From: Patescibacteria group bacterium
GTDB lineage: Bacteria; Patescibacteriota; Doudnabacteria; UBA920; O2-02-FULL-48-8
Assembly: GCA_036394315.1 (NCBI GenBank)
Contig: DASWFI010000007.1
Span: 3,984 to 67,983, forward strand
Direction of reading: 5' to 3'
Length of the DNA stretch: 64,000 bases
This document shows, one piece after another, positions 4,037 through 62,827 of the stretch; within the stretch, counting starts at the first letter, position 1; the number at the start of each line of letters is the position of its first letter. Below the pieces are notes generated by a model. The model did no database searches. It saw only the letters and a list, made by a program, of their open reading frames with translations, and was not told the DNA's origin. The position numbers were made by a program, and so were the translations under genes.

Positions 4037-4888
4037 TTAAATCTTAAGCCTCATCAACTTTTCACGGGCGGTTTTATTGCCCGGTTCAAGCGCCAGGATT
4101 TGTTCCAGGACTTCCTCTGCACGCACGTAATTTTCCAATTTCACATAAGCATCTGCCAGCAAGCTGAGGTAATTAACATTTAATTTATCCAGCTGGACCG
4201 CGGAAGAAAGGGCTTTTACAGCTTTGGTATAATCCTCCAGTGCTTCAAAGCACAGCCCCAAATTTACCCACCGCGTGGGTATTTTGCTGTTAATGCTCAG
4301 GGCTTTCTCGTATGCCTCTTTCGCCTTTTGGTATTCCTTCAGCGAATAATGCGACATTCCCAAATTGCTGTAATAAATATCTCTGGTCGGATCAAGTTTG
4401 ACCAGATATTCATAAGTCTGTACTGCATCAGCGTAATTTTTATTTTGCAGATACAATCTGCCCAGCGCCTCATAAGCTTCTCGATCGTGGGGATTTTTTT
4501 TAATCGCCGCCAGATAAAGATCTTCGGGGGTTTGGTTCGCGGAAGGCTTAATGCTCAACTCAGCCGCCTCAGGCAGCCACTGCGGATCGGCTGTAGAAGA
4601 TCTGATACGGATCCGAAAAGCGCTTTTCACTTTTTCGTATTGACTCTCAAAAGTTTTCGTGGCGGCGGGTTTCAAATCCTTCGCTTCCAAAATAAAACGC
4701 CAAAGCTTGTGAGCCACGATTCCCAACTTCTGCTTGATGTAAGGCCAAAGATCGTAATGATGAGTTGTCGTTGGTGTAATTCGCAATCGAATCTGCGGCC
4801 GGCTGTTAAGCTGGCCGAGTTTGAATAAAAACAAACTCACAGCAACCAAAACCGCGACTGCTAAAACAACAACTAAGGAGATAATCAT
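4037..4888 (-). CDS. Membrane-anchored TPR-repeat protein
   Basis: N-terminal hydrophobic helix, then repeated Y/A/L-rich 34-residue TPR-like units (AYEALGRLYLQNKNYADAVQTYEYLVKLDP...). Confidence 0.6.
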   Translation of the reverse strand: MIISLVVVLAVAVLVAVSLFLFKLGQLNSRPQIRLRITPTTTHHYDLWPYIKQKLGIVAHKLWRFILEAKDLKPAATKTFESQYEKVKSAFRIRIRSSTADPQWLPEAAELSIKPSANQTPEDLYLAAIKKNPHDREAYEALGRLYLQNKNYADAVQTYEYLVKLDPTRDIYYSNLGMSHYSLKEYQKAKEAYEKALSINSKIPTRWVNLGLCFEALEDYTKAVKALSSAVQLDKLNVNYLSLLADAYVKLENYVRAEEVLEQILALEPGNKTAREKLMRLKI

Positions 4889-5477: not shown

Positions 5478-5501
5478 TTTGTACTCCTTTTATACTTTAT
5501 A

Positions 5502-6233
5502 CTATTTGGCTACTGCCGCGCCCTCAGTTTGAGCCATGATCGTTTGAGCCATATTATTGCGGCCCTCGTTGATCGCATCCGCCATGACCGAAGTCATGTA
5601 GCTTATCACCTTGATCGCATCATCGTTAGATGGAATCATATAGTCGACGTTGGTCGGATCCGAGTTTGTATCCACGAGACCGATCACTTTGACTTTTGAC
5701 TGGCGGGCTTCTTCCACCGGAATGTGATCATATTTAGTGTCGAGCACGAAAATTGCTTCAGGCAACTTTTTCATATCCTTGATTCCGGAAAAGAAAGTTT
5801 TCATCTTTTCCACTTCACGCGCGATCATCAACTGCTCTTTCTTGGTATATTTTTTGATCTCCCCGCTTTCGATCATCTTTTCCATCTTTTCCATCTTCTT
5901 GATGGTTCTTTGAATGGTACGGAAATTAGTGAAAGTCCCACCCAGCCAGCGTGTGACCACATAAGGCATGTTACAGGACTCGGCAGCTTTGCGCACTTCT
6001 TCTTTTGCCTGTCTTTTGGTTCCGACAAATAAAACCGTTCCGCCTCGAGCAACTGTTTCTTTGGCAAAGTTCAAAGCTTCAGTCAGCTTCTTGCGAGTTT
6101 TTTCCAAATCCAAAATATGGATATTGTTGCGCTGCGTGTATATATAAGATGCCATTTTAGGATTCCACAAGGAAGTCTTGTGGCCAAAATGCACGCCAGC
6201 CTTAAGCATCTCCATCAAATTGATGGTTTTCAT
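5502..6233 (-). CDS. rpsB: 30S ribosomal protein S2
   Basis: MLKAGVHFGHKTSLWNPKMASYIY...; conserved rpsB-tsf gene order. Confidence 0.95.
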   Translation of the reverse strand: MKTINLMEMLKAGVHFGHKTSLWNPKMASYIYTQRNNIHILDLEKTRKKLTEALNFAKETVARGGTVLFVGTKRQAKEEVRKAAESCNMPYVVTRWLGGTFTNFRTIQRTIKKMEKMEKMIESGEIKKYTKKEQLMIAREVEKMKTFFSGIKDMKKLPEAIFVLDTKYDHIPVEEARQSKVKVIGLVDTNSDPTNVDYMIPSNDDAIKVISYMTSVMADAINEGRNNMAQTIMAQTEGAAVAK

Positions 6234-6396
6234 AAATTATTGATCCTTTATACTTCTGCTCCCGTCATCTGTTTTAGGAATCTCGAGGTTCATTGTCTTG
6301 ATCCTCGAAACAAGGCCTAAACACATCAGGTGAGCATGTATGATTAATAGCTCATGGATTCTAGCATATAAAAGTGCTGGTGGCAAGAGCAGGATT

Positions 6397-6452
6397 TGTC
6401 TACATTTAAACGCGACATTTGAAAAATGTTGTCGGAATTTGACGCGAAGGAG
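6397..6452. repeat. Conserved ~56 nt intergenic element, copy A (upstream of the rpsB promoter); copy B is at 10247-10302
   Basis: gtctacatttaaacgcgacatttgaaaaatgttgtcggaatttgacgcgaaggag versus gtcagcagttaccgcgacacttggaaaaatttagtcagaatttgacgcaaacgag. About 80% identity by hand alignment; shared core cgcgaca.ttg.aaaaat.t.gtc.gaatttgacgc.aa.gag. Confidence 0.6.
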
Positions 6453-6552
6453 TAAGCCTGCAGCCCAGGGGAAATTTGCCGCTGTCCGAGCGACTAAAAA
6501 TCGGCTTTGATTTGTCCATGTCGCGAGTCCGGCAAATTTCCGACTTTTTTTG

Positions 6553-6580
6553 CGCTACTTTTCTTCTAGAAGAAAAGTAG
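6553..6580. promoter_or_regulatory. Perfect 13 bp inverted repeat GCTACTTTTCTTC-tag-GAAGAAAAGTAGC; a homologous hairpin sits at 10405-10432
   Basis: Perfect palindrome. The same GCTACTTTT...AAAAGTAGC-type hairpin recurs in the other r-protein upstream region with one mismatch. Confidence 0.5.
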
Positions 6581-6615
6581 CAAATAAAAAAGCCTTGCCG
6601 GTTTGCCCGGAAAGG
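6581..6615 (-). terminator. Rho-independent terminator of the upstream minus-strand gene
   Basis: On the minus strand: GCCTTTCCGGGcaaaCCGGCAAGGC followed by TTTTTTATTT. Confidence 0.65.
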
Positions 6616-6619
6616 CTTA

Positions 6620-7089
6620 TTACTGAATCCCGCCGTAGCCAAAGAAGAGTTTTCGCACATCCGGCGGTAGCCGTTTGGCGGGTTCGATACAGTTCCTCAC
6701 GAAGATATTCGGATGTGATTTCTGTCCCTCGAGAGGAGGTATAAACATTCCATTTTTCATCTTCTTCTCACTAAAAACGTGTGGAGACTGACGTCTTCCA
6801 TTGATGTAGATGACAGTATTGGAACTGGTATCACCACGCTGTTCCGATGCGTTCAGTTGAAGGCCTTTGCGATCTTTCAGAACGAACACACTGCAGCCTG
6901 GAATTGAGTAGTACGGTCTTTCAAAGATCTTGAGTAATTCTTCACTCCTCAGATCCTCGACTTTCCACTCCTGTGCCTGTGTTTCGACCACGCGCACGTT
7001 TGTCGGCGCCCTCGGAGGATTCGGCTTCCGCGTCTGCTCACCGGTCAGGGCCAGAACTGCCACGAGAACGATCAACACATGAGTCATGA
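6620..7089 (-). CDS. Small secreted hypothetical protein with a signal peptide (start chosen at MTHVLIV..)
   Basis: The track ORF is 6620-7129. The ATG at 7087-7089 is preceded by GAGGTG and followed by a hydrophobic signal sequence MTHVLIVLVAVLALTG. Confidence 0.5.
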
Positions 7090-7225
7090 TTTCACCTCTT
7101 TTTGCGAAGCTGGTTTCGTCGGATGACAAGGATGCGTCGGATGATCAACGATAGAAAAACAATTGCAATGGCTACGATTTGCACACATCCTCCTTCCCTT
7201 TGCTAACAACCAATAATATCCTGTC

Positions 7226-7254
7226 TTGACTTATATGTCAATCTACGCTATAAT
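7226..7254 (+). promoter_or_regulatory. Consensus sigma-70 promoter for rpmE
   Basis: TTGACT (7226-7231), 17 nt spacer, TATAAT (7249-7254), about 10 nt upstream of the rpmE ATG. Confidence 0.65.
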
Positions 7255-7263
7255 CCCATAGCT

Positions 7264-7512
7264 ATGAAAATAAATTTACACCCACAATATTTTACTAACG
7301 CCAAGGTTGTCTGTGCTTGCGGCAATACCTTTACCACGGGTTCCACTAGACAGGAACTCCATGTTGAAATTTGCTCCAACTGCCATCCATTCTATACTGG
7401 CAAGCAAAACCTCATCGACGCCGCCGGTACGATTGATAAATTCAAAAAACGAACTTCCAAAGCCGCTGAGTTGAAATCCAAACGCATCACGAAGAAACTA
7501 GCCAAAGTTTAG
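7264..7512 (+). CDS. rpmE: 50S ribosomal protein L31
   Basis: [29 protein letters not shown], the L31 CxxC zinc-ribbon signature. Confidence 0.9.
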
Positions 7513-7589
7513 ATACTCAAAAGACGTCATTTAAGATACAATATCTTTGATGGCGTCTTTTTAATTCGTAATTCGCCTTTCGTTAATAT

Positions 7590-8645
7590 ATGGAACTCAA
7601 CTATTTACATCTGCAAAAAGAATACGATCAGATAAACGATAAACTTTCCCAAACGACTGATCGACAGGAATTAGCTAAGCTCGGCAAACGGCAATCCGAG
7701 CTTTTGCCAGTGGTGACTAAAATCAACCGGCTGGAAAAAGTAAAATCAGAGATTGCCGAGCACGAAAAACTGATCGCGGAAGAATCCGAACTTTCTGAAA
7801 TGGCCCAGGCCGAGCTCCCCTCCCTTCAATCCGAGCAGGAAAAGCTTCTGGAAGAAATCCGTGTCTTCATGCTGCCAAAAGATCCTTACGATGAAAAAAA
7901 CATCATTGTGGAAATTCGCGCCGGTGCTGGGGGTGATGAGTCGGCATTATTTGCGGCTGAATTGTTTCGAATGTATAGCAAATATGCGGAAAGGTTAGGC
8001 TATAAAGTGGTCGTGGCTTCATCAAGCCGGAACTCTCTGGGCGGGTTCAAAGAAATAATTTTCGAAGTCTTGGGGCATGGAGCTTATTCCAAATTTAAAT
8101 ACGAATCCGGCGTGCATCGCGTGCAAAGAGTTCCCGAAACTGAAAAATCCGGCCGCGTCCATACTTCAACGGTCACTGTGGCAGTGATGCCGGAAATCGA
8201 AGAGGTAGATTTCAAAATCGATCCGAAAGATTTAAAGATGGAAGCCACCACGGCCTCTGGTCACGGCGGTCAGTCTGTAAACACCACTTACTCTGCCATT
8301 CGGCTGACTCACTTGCCTACGGGGATTACCGTGGTCATGCAGGACGAACGATCGCAGGCTCAAAACCGGGAGAAAGCCTTTGCCATCATGCGCGCCCGAG
8401 TCTTGGCTTTGGAAGAAGAACGTAAAAGGAAAGAATTGAGCGATAAACGAAAATCTCAGATCGGTACAGGTGATCGGTCTGAAAAAATCCGCACTTATAA
8501 TTTCCCCCAGGACAGAATCACAGATCATCGCATCAACCAAAATTGGAACCAGATCAACATGATCATCGACGGTGAACTAGGACAAATCACAGAGGCCATG
8601 ATTGCTGAAGATCAAAAAAGACAATTGGAAGCCGCGAACAAATGA
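7590..8645 (+). CDS. prfA: Peptide chain release factor 1
   Basis: GGQ motif ([11 protein letters not shown]) and an RF1-type P-x-T tripeptide (PET); followed by prmC as in canonical prfA-prmC operons. Confidence 0.9.
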
Positions 8646-34575: not shown

Positions 34576-34665
34576 TGGATCGCCCTGCTTGACTTGCGTA
34601 TTTTTATAGCGTAAAATTATCCTATTGTTCGTTATATGGTCACCATATCTGACAGGAGGTCACTT

Positions 34666-34863
34666 ATGCCCCAGCCGGAACTCAGCCGCAAGCAGCGCAA
34701 GCAACTGGCCAACTTCAAGAGCGAGATGGCTCACCAGGGCGTGCACAACCGTGTGCAGTTCGATGCCTTCGTTAAGAAGATGAAGCCGGAGGAATACACG
34801 CGCATTGCGGGGCTGATTCCACACGCATTCCCATCTCCGCAATCGGCGGCTCGCGCATCGTAA
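34666..34863 (+). CDS. Small hypothetical protein on a GC-rich (~55%) islet with a perfect AGGAGG SD
   Basis: ATG at 34666 lies 8 nt after AGGAGG. The islet's GC is far above the window background. Confidence 0.45.
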   Translation: MPQPELSRKQRKQLANFKSEMAHQGVHNRVQFDAFVKKMKPEEYTRIAGLIPHAFPSPQSAARAS

Positions 34864-34947
34864 GATCAACGTCGGAGGAGTCGTGGACATTCGCCCACCC
34901 TGACTAACACTACTGTAACCCACTCCAACATCAATTCCGACCACAGT

Positions 34948-35241
34948 ATGGAGACAGTAGTGGATACATTCGAACTTCGTCCTTCCGTCAAAGCGGTCGT
35001 TCAGAACGACCTTCTCTCCCAGAACCTCAAACAAGGAACAGAGGTGACGCTCGGTCGAGCCAGTCTCAGCGGCGCGCTTGCGAAAATCGAAGGCAGCAAC
35101 AAGTACGACGTGATTGCTGAATTCGATGCCGAAGCCGTCGAGGAAATAAAGAAGCAGGCAAAGGAAGCGCGCAAGATGGCCGCTATGTACTGCAGCGAGC
35201 CTGTGGTCCGTCGTCGTCCGAACATGCAACGCGTCTGGTAG
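34948..35241 (+). CDS. Small hypothetical protein on the same GC-rich islet
   Basis: 97 aa, protein-like composition; the antisense ORF 34660-35229 looks like low-complexity noise. Confidence 0.4.
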   Translation: METVVDTFELRPSVKAVVQNDLLSQNLKQGTEVTLGRASLSGALAKIEGSNKYDVIAEFDAEAVEEIKKQAKEARKMAAMYCSEPVVRRRPNMQRVW

Positions 35242-35534
35242 TCTACGCCGACCTTTAAAAGCCTGAGAGACAGATCCGGGGAAGGAACTGTCATTCTGCC
35301 TTTTAGACTTTTAACGGTGTTGCTCTAGGGTGAGAGAACGACCTTGCCTACCGGATCCAGACAGTTCCGGTAAGGAATCGACTCAGTACCCGCGGGGCAG
35401 CCTGGGTGCTCTTTCCCAGAGAGTCACCCAGCATTTTCACGCCAGTGGATCGCATCGATCCCTGGCTCTTTTTTTTGAGAATTATTTAGTAGTTACAGCA
35501 ATTCCGCCCTTTTGTCTGCACAATGGTGGCAAAA

Positions 35535-59514: not shown

Positions 59515-61206
59515 TTACATCTCTTCCAAAGCTTCAATCCCTAGTAAATCCAAACCTCGGCTTAGAGCTTTTTTGGCACTAAAAACAAGCGCGATTCGAT
59601 AATTTTTCACTGCTTCATCCGGCTCCTGCGTTACCGGGCTTTCGTGATAAAATCGATTTAGCAAAGTTGCGAAGTTATAAAGATAATTGGCCAACACATT
59701 CGGCAAATAATCTTCAAGGCTATCTGCCACTATTTCGGGAAGGATGGCGGTTTGAAAAAGAATTTGCCTCTCCGTGAGGCTCATGACTATTGTCCCCTGT
59801 AACCTGTCCCCTATAACATGATTTCCCGCCTTCCTAAGAATGCTGGCTAGGCGCGCATGCGTGTACTGCAAATAAGGCCCGCTGTTGCCTTCGAAATCCA
59901 AAGCTTTGTCCCAATCAAACTCAATGTCACTATGACGGTTATGGGAAAGTATGAAATACTTGATAGCTGCCTGGGCCACGGCTGGAATGACATAATCCGC
60001 ATCACTAAGATTGGGATTTTTTTCCGCGATGATCTTCTCCACTTTTTCTTTGGCTTGAGCAATAACGTCTTCAGCTAAAACCATGTTGCCTTTCCTGCTG
60101 GACAAGGCCTCACCTTTAAAACTCATAAAACCATAATCGATGTGCACGGCTTCCTCATCGTGCATGTAGCCAAGCAGTTTTAAGATGGCGAACAATTGTT
60201 TGAACGCGTGTGCTTGCCGCACATCCACCACATAAAGCTGCTTATTGAAGCCAAGTGATTTTCTATAAACAAAAGTTGCAAGGTCGCGCAGCAAATAAGT
60301 AGTGCCTCCGTCGGATTTTACAATCAAGGCAATTCCTAATCCCTGGCTTTCTAAATCTACAATCTGCGCTCCTTGAGATTCCTTCAATAAACCTCTGCCC
60401 TTAAGATCCATGAGGATTGCGGGCATTTTGTCCTGATAAAAACTTTCCGGCCAGTGATGATCGAAAAGTTGAATATTCATCAGCTCGTTAATCTTCAAAT
60501 GTTTTTCGAGACTCCAATCCACAAACTTTTTCCAGATTGCCCTGTTTTCGGAATCACCTTTTTCCAATTTCACAAACTCCTCCTTGGCTTCTTCGTGAAG
60601 CGTTGGATGCTTGGTAATCTCTTCGTTTATCTTTACATAAAGCTTGTTCAGTTCGTTAATCGGATCGGATTCTACGATGCCTTCATTGCCATATTTTTTG
60701 TAAGCTAAAAGCAGCTGGCCAAATTGCGTTCCCCAATCCCCCATGTGAGTATCGGATTCTACTTGGTGACCCAAATATTTTAACTGGCGATAAATAGTAT
60801 CGCCGATGACTGCTGTTTCCAAATGGCCTAAATGCAAAGGCTTGGCCACATTGGGCTGAAAATATTCCACTAGAATTTTTTCAGGCTTTGTTATCTGTTC
60901 ACTGCTATCTATTATCTTACTTACGAGTGCCTCGGGTTTGAGTCTGAAATTAATAAACCCAGGGCCCGCGACTTCTACCTTTTCAAAATCACTGACATTC
61001 ATTTTAGCGATAAGCTGGGTTGCCAGTTCCACTGGCTTCATCTTGGCTTCTTTTGCCAAAATCAAAGCCGCATTCGTCGCATAGTCCCCGATTTTGGCAT
61101 CTGGATATGTGACAGTAATTTTTGATTTCAGTTCATCTGAAATCAAAACACCTGTCGCCTCTGCTGCTTCTATCACTAATTGTTGGATTTCTTTCTTCAT
61201 TAGCAT
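59515..61206 (-). CDS. argS: Arginyl-tRNA synthetase
   Basis: Class I HIGH-like PNVAKPLHLGHL; anticodon-binding DALR domain at the C-terminus. Confidence 0.9.
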   Translation of the reverse strand: MLMKKEIQQLVIEAAEATGVLISDELKSKITVTYPDAKIGDYATNAALILAKEAKMKPVELATQLIAKMNVSDFEKVEVAGPGFINFRLKPEALVSKIIDSSEQITKPEKILVEYFQPNVAKPLHLGHLETAVIGDTIYRQLKYLGHQVESDTHMGDWGTQFGQLLLAYKKYGNEGIVESDPINELNKLYVKINEEITKHPTLHEEAKEEFVKLEKGDSENRAIWKKFVDWSLEKHLKINELMNIQLFDHHWPESFYQDKMPAILMDLKGRGLLKESQGAQIVDLESQGLGIALIVKSDGGTTYLLRDLATFVYRKSLGFNKQLYVVDVRQAHAFKQLFAILKLLGYMHDEEAVHIDYGFMSFKGEALSSRKGNMVLAEDVIAQAKEKVEKIIAEKNPNLSDADYVIPAVAQAAIKYFILSHNRHSDIEFDWDKALDFEGNSGPYLQYTHARLASILRKAGNHVIGDRLQGTIVMSLTERQILFQTAILPEIVADSLEDYLPNVLANYLYNFATLLNRFYHESPVTQEPDEAVKNYRIALVFSAKKALSRGLDLLGIEALEEM

Positions 61207-61532
61207 ATGACTATTTTATCAGATATAATAACCTAGAACAATAAAAAAGAGCAGGGCAAAAAGTCCTACTCGACAACACATTTTCCCCCATGGAATTCAA
61301 CTGTGGTTTGCCCCAAGCGTAGAAGCCCGTTGACATAGAGTACTGGTTTACATCAGCAACCCTTTAAACCAGTAAAGGACTGATGTTTACTCTTGAATGC
61401 TGGCGATCTTGGAGTCCTGTCCCACTGCTAGGATGGTCGAACGATCTACCAATACGTCGCGTGATATCGCAGATATGGCGTTCTCCGCACCACACTCTGG
61501 ACCAAACCACAGTCAGCATATTATAAATAGTT

Positions 61533-61982
61533 ATGACTAGTCTTGCAAATAATCGAAAAGCGCTGCACAACTATTCCATCGAAGATCAGATCGAGGCGGG
61601 TTTGGTATTGGCAGGGCACGAAGTCAAAAGCATCAGAAACGGCCAGGCCAGTTTGGATGGAGCGTACGTCACGATCCGAAACGGCGAGGCTTTCTTGCGC
61701 AACGCTTACATCGGTAAATACAAGCAAGCAGCAAACCTGGAAGGTTACGATGAGTCCAGAGAACGGAAATTGTTATTGCACAAAAATGAACTATTGCGAC
61801 TTCAATCAAAGACCAAAGAAAAAGGTCTAACATTAGTCCCTTTGCAGATCTACACTTCCAAGCGGCGCCTTAAACTCAAAATTGGTCTCGGACGTGGAAA
61901 GAAACAATACGACAAACGCGAATCAATTAAGAAAAAAGAAACAAAAAGAAGTCTGGACAGAACTATCCGAACCAGAGTATAA
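61533..61982 (+). CDS. smpB: SsrA-binding protein
   Basis: ..KALHNYSIEDQIEAGLVLAGHEVKSIRNGQASLDGAYV.., the SmpB signature; tmRNA lies ~460 nt downstream. Confidence 0.9.
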   Translation: MTSLANNRKALHNYSIEDQIEAGLVLAGHEVKSIRNGQASLDGAYVTIRNGEAFLRNAYIGKYKQAANLEGYDESRERKLLLHKNELLRLQSKTKEKGLTLVPLQIYTSKRRLKLKIGLGRGKKQYDKRESIKKKETKRSLDRTIRTRV

Positions 61983-62012
61983 AAAAGAACCGCGACCTCG
62001 ATGGCGGCGGTT

Positions 62013-62339
62013 TTAGTTATGCGGCTTGAAATAGTAGTTCCTCGTATGGTGGTAGAGCAACTCGGTCTTCCAGAGCCAAGCCTCGGCTTCCAGCCAGTCT
62101 TGTTCAGGACTACTCATGATCCCAACGTCACATCTTCTCTCGGAGATGACATGCGCCAGACTCGCAATACTCGCTCTCGATGGAGCCATATCACGCTCCG
62201 CAGCGATCCAGTCCCCTTCGGGCGTGCCCTCGATTTCATGAGCTTCGCGATGGCGCGAATTAGACCAGGCGCGATGCCTGATCACATCCCGACGAACTTC
62301 AGTCAATCTGCGAATCTGTTCCGCGTCCAATGGAAACAT
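62013..62339 (-). CDS. Hypothetical protein on a GC-rich (~55%) islet inserted between smpB and ssrA; strong GGAGG SD
   Basis: 108 aa; GGAGG lies 9 nt upstream of the ATG; composition is anomalous relative to its neighbours. Confidence 0.45.
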   Translation of the reverse strand: MFPLDAEQIRRLTEVRRDVIRHRAWSNSRHREAHEIEGTPEGDWIAAERDMAPSRASIASLAHVISERRCDVGIMSSPEQDWLEAEAWLWKTELLYHHTRNYYFKPHN

Positions 62340-62446
62340 GCCATACCTCCTCGAGATTGTGTGTGCCTATCATACAACATTAACCCTTGCCAAACAAGTC
62401 TTTTTTTGATAGAATTGATTGACCTCAAAAGAGGTCGCAAAAACAC

Positions 62447-62827
62447 GGGGCTGAATTGATTCGACAGGTGTTCCTTCAAAATCACAGCAAGTCCGATTAG
62501 CCTAATCTCTCGGTTAAAAAGAAAAGGTAAATCATAAATGCCAAAAATTTGGTAAGCAGATTCGTGAATGCTTTTGCATTCTCACCTGCTATGGTTGCTG
62601 CTTAATTAAGTAACAACCCATCAGCCTTTCGGTGTTCTTCCGAAAGTACCTGGTGTTATATTAAGAACTTACTTTGATCGGTACTCGACGATCAAAAGGA
62701 CATTTAGAGCAACCTTAAACTGTTTTCGTTTCGCTTCTATAGTTTAAGATAAACAAGCGAAACTAAACTTGTAGAAGTGGCTTTGAAAAACTCTTGGACG
62801 GGAGTTCACTGCTCCCCAGCTCCACCA
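62447..62827 (+). ncRNA. ssrA: tmRNA (SsrA)
   Basis: 5' GGGGCUGAAUUGAUUCGACAGG matches the canonical GGGGCUGAUUCUGGAUUCGACGGG. 3' GGACGGGAGUUCACUGCUCCCCAGCUCCACCA matches E. coli GGACGCGGGUUCAACUCCCGCCAGCUCCACCA. The G3:U70 pair and A73 are present. A tag ORF ends ...SPAMVAA and is followed by UAA. Confidence 0.82.

Follow-up and report, generated by a model that had tools for sequence, protein, structure and literature searches.

A 401-nt single-gene insert between smpB and ssrA in a Doudnabacteria genome, probably of foreign, higher-GC origin, encodes a divergent tandem-DUF2934 protein

What is a small, GC-rich gene of opposite orientation doing between smpB and ssrA, two functionally coupled genes of trans-translation, and how did it come to be there? 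The locus lies towards the right-hand end of the 64,000-nt stretch of Doudnabacteria DNA that was analysed (hereafter, the window), and we think it likely that the gene is a foreign one, acquired by this lineage alone from a source of higher GC content. We call it ORF108, after its 108 codons; it is recorded at NCBI as hypothetical protein VF974_00565 (HEX9502800.1), on the same 80.5-kb contig as SmpB (HEX9502799.1), and a longer ORF of 152 aa overlaps it antisense. A sequence-only reading of the window had described a GC-rich 108-aa ORF on the strand opposite to smpB and the tmRNA gene, and its account is right in all essentials, since smpB, ORF108 (at 62013-62339 on the minus strand), the tmRNA, the GGAGG and a hairpin all lie where it had put them. 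The features of the locus are as follows.

59515-61206, minus strand: argS
61533-61982, plus strand: smpB, 149 aa, native (Pfam SmpB, 181.5 bits, E 1.1e-53)
61980-61982, plus strand: smpB stop codon TAA, left junction of the insert
61983-62383, no strand: inserted segment, 401 nt, GC 0.531 (blastn and alignment against the relatives L165, L001 and L082)
61987-62013, no strand: GC-rich hairpin AACCGCG...CGCGGTT, flanked by an A-run and, at its opposite edge, a T-run (fold computation)
62013-62339, minus strand: ORF108, 108 codons, within the insert
62346-62350, minus strand: Shine-Dalgarno sequence GGAGG of ORF108, 6 nt before the ATG (read from the sequence)
62369-62374, minus strand: candidate -10 box of ORF108, TATGAT, inside the insert (read from the sequence)
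62387-62415, plus strand: native ssrA promoter, TTGCCA-17-TAGAAT (promoter scan, 10/12 matches, upstream TG)
62421-62436, plus strand: 5' leader hairpin of the pre-tmRNA, GACCTC-AAAA-GAGGTC (alignment and sequence)
62447-62827, plus strand: tmRNA gene ssrA, intact (ARAGORN; Rfam RF00023, 120.9 bits, model positions 1-374)
directly after ssrA, plus strand: infC, rpmI and rplT

ARAGORN and Rfam agree with the earlier reading that the tmRNA begins at 62447; the molecule is full length by Rfam, and its tag peptide is AKNLVSRFVNAFAFSPAMVAA. The GGAGG said to stand 9 nt upstream of the ATG is indeed there (62350-62346), the distance being approximate: the gap is 6 nt, and the first G lies 11 nt from the A of the ATG. 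Similarly, the spacer of some 100 nt that had been counted as part of the islet is found (107 nt from the start codon of ORF108 to the tmRNA), but its rightmost 63 nt are the native promoter and leader of ssrA.

Exactly where does the insert begin and end? SmpB of the window is 73-94% identical to that of its Doudnabacteria relatives, whose smpB loci we retrieved and refer to by L-labels (11 relatives came with DNA), and the reference for the breakpoints is L165, the closest relative with the same ssrA orientation, at 90.6% identity for both the SmpB protein and the tmRNA DNA. L165 has no insert: its smpB stop codon runs straight into CCCTTGCCA, that is, into the ssrA promoter; the junction reads CCAGAGTATAA / CCCTTGCCAAAT, after which come TTGCCA-17-TAGAAT, a short leader hairpin and the tmRNA. 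The left junction in the window is CCAGAGTATAA / AAAAGAACCGCG and the right one ACATTAA / CCCTTGCCAAAC, with TAA at both (61980-61982 and 62381-62383). These junction sequences, and the resumption of the blastn match at 62381, set the insert at 61983-62383. An islet between smpB and ssrA is therefore borne out to the base in the comparison with L165, but its limits move from the 61990-62446 first proposed. Both junctions are clean against L165, and the smpB frame, the ssrA promoter, the leader and the tmRNA are intact, the promoter beginning 4 nt to the right of the insert at a position that is kept in L165 (L001 has TTTACA-17-TAATAT). The 3-nt TAA repeat is compatible with microhomology-mediated joining, but by itself it is not significant. 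The leader hairpin recurs between the -10 box and the mature 5' end in L165 (about 5487-5503) and L001 (about 4492-4506), and its arms differ between the window (GACCTC/GAGGTC) and L165 (ACCCT/AGGGT), with changes on both arms.

That ORF108 is an addition, and not a gene shared with its relatives, agrees with a tblastn search in which none of the 11 relatives with DNA returned a homologue, not even the two closest in SmpB (94% and 90.6%). The DNA beside smpB and ssrA differs in every relative compared, as the following list, with SmpB identities to the window in brackets, makes plain.

L165, L001 and L082 (91%, 78% and 79%): ssrA on the plus strand, 15-64 nt after smpB
L161/L162 and L081 (84% and 80%): ssrA immediately after smpB, inverted
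L163 (86%): ssrA inverted and separated from smpB by guaA and a 242-aa gene, which adjoin its 3' end
L169 (87%): ssrA inverted and lying beyond a pilin-like gene; 26 nt of the tmRNA 3' end exactly duplicated
L166 (94%): smpB adjoined by a large gene for a LamG/Ig surface protein
L083 (78%): three genes on the minus strand; ssrA absent from the nearest 3.2 kb
JGI 3300071358 contig, 195 kb (89%): three small ORFs, including an 89-aa minus-strand ORF at the position of ORF108

The adjacency of smpB and tmRNA, taken at the outset as the normal state, thus holds in L165, L001, L082, L161/L162 and L081, where ssrA stands 15-64 nt from smpB and which we take to show the ancestral arrangement, but is not universal in the clade. 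Because the neighbouring content differs in each relative, we regard smpB/ssrA as a hotspot, and the 401-nt insert is, as far as the sequences of all the relatives sampled tell us, unique to the lineage of the window. A profile search returned no 89-aa protein from a 195-kb contig.

Several observations on these relatives deserve mention in their own right. The tmRNA gene, of about 0.4 kb, is inverted with respect to smpB and infC in L161/L162 (2767-3152), L163 (5458-5840), L081 (about 905-1180) and L169 (4940-5079), and is co-oriented with smpB in the window, L165, L001 and L082; this orientation does not track SmpB similarity, and a search for inverted repeats flanking ssrA that might mediate its flip found none. 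The 26-nt duplicate in L169 (4781-4806 and 4940-4965) adjoins the pilin-like gene (N_methyl) and is 134 nt away from the inverted ssrA, past its 3' end; such an att-like repeat suggests that an integrase once inserted DNA at ssrA in this clade. L165 carries about 2.1 kb (5898-8046) between the 3' end of ssrA and infC, with an 80-aa GIY-YIG gene and a 461-aa gene that has no Pfam match, and a 17-nt inverted repeat (5893-5909 and 5943-5959) begins at its tmRNA 3' end. We compared the 461-aa gene with the 464-aa neighbour of a DUF2934 homologue (L164), and the two are unrelated. Within the window, 13 nt at the 3' coding end of smpB (61919-61931, CGAATCAATTAAG) are 92% complementary to the 5' acceptor-stem region of the tmRNA (62451-62463, CTGAATTGATTCG), probably by chance.

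Does the composition of the insert point to a foreign source? GC content is 0.431 over the window, 0.531 over the insert and 0.538 over ORF108, a value that only 1.25% of 327-nt windows reach. Set beside 51 ORFs of the window that do not overlap and measure 100 aa or more, ORF108 comes out on top both for GC (mean 0.434, sd 0.034, maximum 0.51) and, at 0.596, for GC3 (mean 0.449, sd 0.060, maximum 0.589); the GC maximum of 0.51 belongs to the 152-aa ORF antisense to ORF108, and the highest native ORF stands at 0.498. However, the native genes gatA, lemA and htpX contain 327-nt stretches with GC of 0.54-0.575, equally GC-rich, so that GC alone is suggestive and no proof of foreign origin. Amino-acid usage adds to it: host proteins are lysine-rich and ORF108 is arginine-rich, with 13 Arg and 2 Lys, giving R/(R+K) of 0.87, where 10 native genes of the window span 0.18-0.56. 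Taken together, the deviant GC and arginine usage argue for a higher-GC source and limited amelioration.

What kind of protein is this? ORF108 is a real gene and a divergent new member of a rare tandem-DUF2934 subfamily. Its product, of 12.8 kDa, is hydrophilic (GRAVY -0.81, pI 6.1) and contains two DUF2934 repeats, G38-T-P-E-G-D-W-I-A-A-E and S76-S-P-E-Q-D-W-L-E-A-E, so that the signature helix-loop-helix with G-x-P-x-x-D-W-x-x-A-E is present twice, its signature residues all intact. Pfam DUF2934 (PF11154) gives ORF108 13.7 bits (E 0.05), below the gathering threshold of 22 bits and with residues 78-89 aligned only. An exhaustive phmmer search of 1.84 billion representative proteins leads to tandem-DUF2934 proteins 85-99 aa long, whose alignments span residues 17-104 with E values of 1e-4 to 9e-4, and, ORF108 itself apart, to no homologue above about 40% identity. 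Ten of the 11 aligned members of the tandem family match PF11154, and P0126 (37.7 bits) and P0130 (41 bits) pass its threshold. To avoid circularity, a family profile was built from eight tandem members with ORF108 left out, and this independent profile gives ORF108 67.6 bits over both repeats (E 2.4e-19, in a small target set), where the best of 5000 shuffles of ORF108 reaches 11.6 bits and the antisense 152-aa ORF gets no score. Identity to the aligned members is about 26-31% over the whole alignment and 30-40% in local BLASTP; G38, E41, D43, W44 and A47 are invariant and T39 is nearly so, within a wider set of conserved positions comprising A24, R31, G38, T39, E41, D43, W44, A47 and their counterparts in repeat 2 (RAY/W...R...GTPExDWxxAE).

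AlphaFold2, run on a shallow alignment, predicts helices at 6-33, 40-51, 55-71 and 78-103 (pLDDT 89.5, pTM 0.72), and the model found no informative structural match among solved structures. We infer that the conserved residues, which have the look of helix caps and of a tryptophan packing into a hairpin core rather than of a catalytic site, are structural, and since they include no catalytic-looking motif, the product would be a binding or adaptor protein, a small cytoplasmic one of four predicted helices, rather than an enzyme. The literature searched holds no characterised DUF2934 member, and the family appears there in gene lists only: a DUF2934 gene is induced along with stress genes in Sinorhizobium (PMC9100948), another lies near quorum-sensing loci in Rhizobium (PMC13133039), and a DUF2934 protein occurs in the vesicle proteome of Chlorobaculum (PMC12132484). 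Only one homologue cluster (P0126/P0132/P0162) has a readable context, and its chromosomal setting is conserved, with a 189-aa gene, DUF2934x2, MatE, ABC-F, glyoxalase, DUF975 and PspC/PadR, in genomes of about 41% GC that do not look like those of Patescibacteria.

The insert also seems to have brought expression signals of its own. The hairpin at 61987-62013 overlaps the stop codon of ORF108 and lies between the convergent smpB and ORF108; it folds with -18.5 kcal/mol (z -3.1) on the plus strand and -12.3 kcal/mol (z -1.9) on the minus strand, its stem has internal loops, the adjoining run reads TTCTTTTTT on the minus and GTTTT on the plus strand, and a consensus scan calls no terminator. 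This is the hairpin that had been described as the smpB terminator, at 61986-62020. The structure is there, but its assignment shifts: no such hairpin is conserved after smpB in the relatives, so that it belongs to the insert, and it is probably best read as the terminator of ORF108, bidirectional and now also facing smpB. At the other end, ORF108 would be transcribed divergently from ssrA through a weak candidate promoter with TATGAT as its -10 box, for which the sole candidate -35 is TTGTTT (62397-62392, minus strand), weak and overlapping the ssrA -35; the consensus promoter scan reported no minus-strand promoter near 62369-62374.

How might all this have come about? Most likely, illegitimate recombination at the level of microhomology, namely the TAA that the two junctions share, placed a 401-nt segment immediately behind the smpB stop codon, 4 nt short of the ssrA -35 box, at a recombination-prone locus. 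Along with an intact gene, this segment would have brought a Shine-Dalgarno sequence for it, a plausible -10 box and the GC-rich hairpin, which now probably terminates both smpB and ORF108. L165 has no terminator between smpB and ssrA; in the window, then, the hairpin would insulate smpB from ssrA, and at most read-through from smpB into ssrA would now be blocked. With smpB, the ssrA promoter, the leader and the tmRNA intact, trans-translation should be unaffected. That this was a gain rather than a loss appears from parsimony and composition, not from a rooted tree, and from one MAG contig.

Searches for the signatures of known mobile DNA came back empty, each within its own scope. The 401 nt hold only ORF108, with no integrase or recombinase; the 28-nt 3' end of the tmRNA occurs once in the window, even with 3 mismatches; no terminal inverted repeats of at least 9 nt bound the insert, with only the TAA repeated at its junctions; and no second copy of it exists in the window or in the set of relatives' loci searched for one. 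The attC cores RYYYAAC/GTTRRRY are absent from the 3' hairpin of the insert, judged by reading the sequence. Readings of the insert as an integron attC, a MITE or an IS were dropped, as the repeats that define them are absent. ORF108 had no match among viral contigs (IMG/VR), plasmids and phages, only chance-level matches in PADLOC and PHROGs, and only itself in a word-indexed protein search; exact look-ups of ORF108 and of the window's SmpB in a contig index found nothing, and neither the insert nor the 300 additional nt before smpB contains an RNA family known to Rfam.

We consider a lineage-specific insertion of a single gene, foreign and from a higher-GC source, to be the probable explanation, although the same pattern would be left if the L165 lineage had undergone a precise deletion between two TAA triplets, ORF108 has no convincing -35 box, and its terminator is not called by the scan. 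It is unlikely that the insert is instead what is left of a larger mobile element or island that integrated next to ssrA and decayed to one gene. The relatives do lend this some colour, with the GIY-YIG and 461-aa genes right after the 3' end of ssrA in L165, guaA and the 242-aa gene at the 3' end of the inverted ssrA in L163, and the pilin-like gene with its 26-nt att-like tmRNA duplicate in L169, and tmRNA genes are frequent targets of islands (PMC11915505, PMC3146451). In the window, however, the insert stands on the 5' (promoter) side of ssrA, there is no tmRNA 3'-end repeat with 3 mismatches allowed, no integrase and no terminal repeat, and the clean junctions against L165 leave nothing over beyond a compact gene with its own signals. 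There is also a slim chance that ORF108 is an old native gene that the relatives have lost and that its composition merely follows from its amino-acid content: the gatA, lemA and htpX stretches are as GC-rich, the two TAA triplets could mediate a precise deletion, and the JGI relative (SmpB 89%) has its 89-aa minus-strand ORF at the same place. Speaking against it are the absence of the gene from all 11 relatives with DNA, those with SmpB at 94% and 90.6% included, the want of any homologue above about 40% identity among the 1.84 billion representatives, an R:K of 13:2 that is far outside native usage, and a GC3 that is the highest of the window's ORFs.

Might the gene not be real at all? It is very improbable that GC-rich non-coding DNA merely happens to leave a frame of this length open, or that the MAG is chimeric here: a single contig carries ORF108, the longer antisense ORF overlaps it, and misjoins do occur in MAG contigs, but the family profile matches strongly and specifically over both repeats with the signature residues intact, the structure prediction is confident, and a chimeric assembly would have to be misjoined twice, at points 401 nt from each other, and still end up perfectly colinear with the relatives on both sides. 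We find it hardly credible, finally, that ORF108 is an accessory of trans-translation, a modulator of SmpB, tmRNA or ssrA transcription whose position is no accident. ORF108 is divergent with ssrA, any promoter that it has must overlap the ssrA -35 region, and smpB also has an unusual 300-nt insertion upstream; yet the gene is absent from all the relatives, its homologues live in unrelated contexts with no smpB, ssrA or tRNA nearby, and the protein resembles neither known trans-translation factors nor solved structures. The suspicion that the islet ORF has nothing to do with trans-translation has thus held up, homologue contexts and similarity searches having found no tie to SmpB or tmRNA.

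Other parts of the window have their own oddities. On the other side of smpB there is a second insertion (61230-61531), some 300 extra nt before the smpB ATG. In the relatives the argS-smpB gap is only 23-35 nt and a TTAGCA-18-TATAAT promoter ends 6 nt before the ATG, so that their smpB mRNA is apparently leaderless; this promoter survives in the window (61200-61229), and behind it stands a degenerate start-region copy. The extra DNA is flanked by diverged direct copies of the promoter and start region (TATGACTA at 61206 and 61532), has 16-nt terminal inverted repeats (61300-61315 and 61498-61513, 88% complementary) and a moderate fold (z about -1.9 on both strands), and it looks like a MITE, with no second copy in the window and no Rfam match. 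Further away, between recG and a 337-aa gene, a GC-rich stretch (34600-35480, 0.533 over 881 nt) is probably one of the other islets of the sequence-only reading; it has no Rfam match and contains the following.

34666-34863: 65-aa ORF, AGGAGG upstream, no Pfam match
34948-35241: 97-aa ORF, sub-threshold NYN_YacP match only
near 35440-35475: hairpin and T-run

It would be a long shot, if an attractive one, to see these GC- and Arg-rich mini-islets (that of ORF108 and at least 34600-35480) as single-gene captures from a higher-GC donor, possibly the organism that carries this episymbiont-type bacterium, with smpB-ssrA as a dedicated hotspot of capture and rearrangement and tandem DUF2934 kept for a role in host interaction or stress. 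The dedicated hotspot would fit, since ssrA is flipped in several relatives and there are insertions on both sides of smpB. Should the GC-rich islets of the contig share a donor, they could provide a clue to the partner organism of this candidate-phylum bacterium.

Why should any of this matter? As one more lineage-specific acquired orphan gene, ORF108 is fairly ordinary and on its own matters little. It does extend an uncharacterised family, DUF2934, in its rare tandem form to a Patescibacteria genome, and the locus is a worked example of how quickly the smpB-ssrA-infC neighbourhood of small genomes can turn over with the trans-translation genes intact, by insertions on either side of ssrA, by inversion of ssrA and with att-like repeats.

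How, then, does the insert compare with systems that are already known? Within the tandem DUF2934 subfamily (P0126-P0133, 85-99 aa), ORF108 has the same two-repeat order and repeat length, and differs in that it alone has a His/Tyr-rich C-terminal tail of about 18 residues and in being an insert in a Patescibacteria genome, whereas its homologues sit in a stable chromosomal context. Islands and prophages at ssrA, such as the vcr islands of Dehalococcoides (PMC3146451), are alike in adjoining ssrA, and the relatives of the window have island-like content and, in L169, the att-like 26-nt repeat. Unlike such islands, the insert of the window stands on the promoter side of ssrA and not at its 3' end, measures only 401 nt, and has neither an integrase nor a tmRNA 3'-end duplication, so that it resembles tmRNA-associated islands by address only and fails their defining features.

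A better likeness is found elsewhere. Strain-specific "islets" of orphan genes arise by illegitimate recombination in intergenic regions, and the insert is like them in being one compact gene with its own ribosome-binding site and candidate terminator, in its deviant GC and amino-acid usage, in having no mobility genes and in showing only a 3-nt microhomology at its junctions. It differs from them only in its address, between two functionally coupled genes, and in its host, a member of a candidate phylum.
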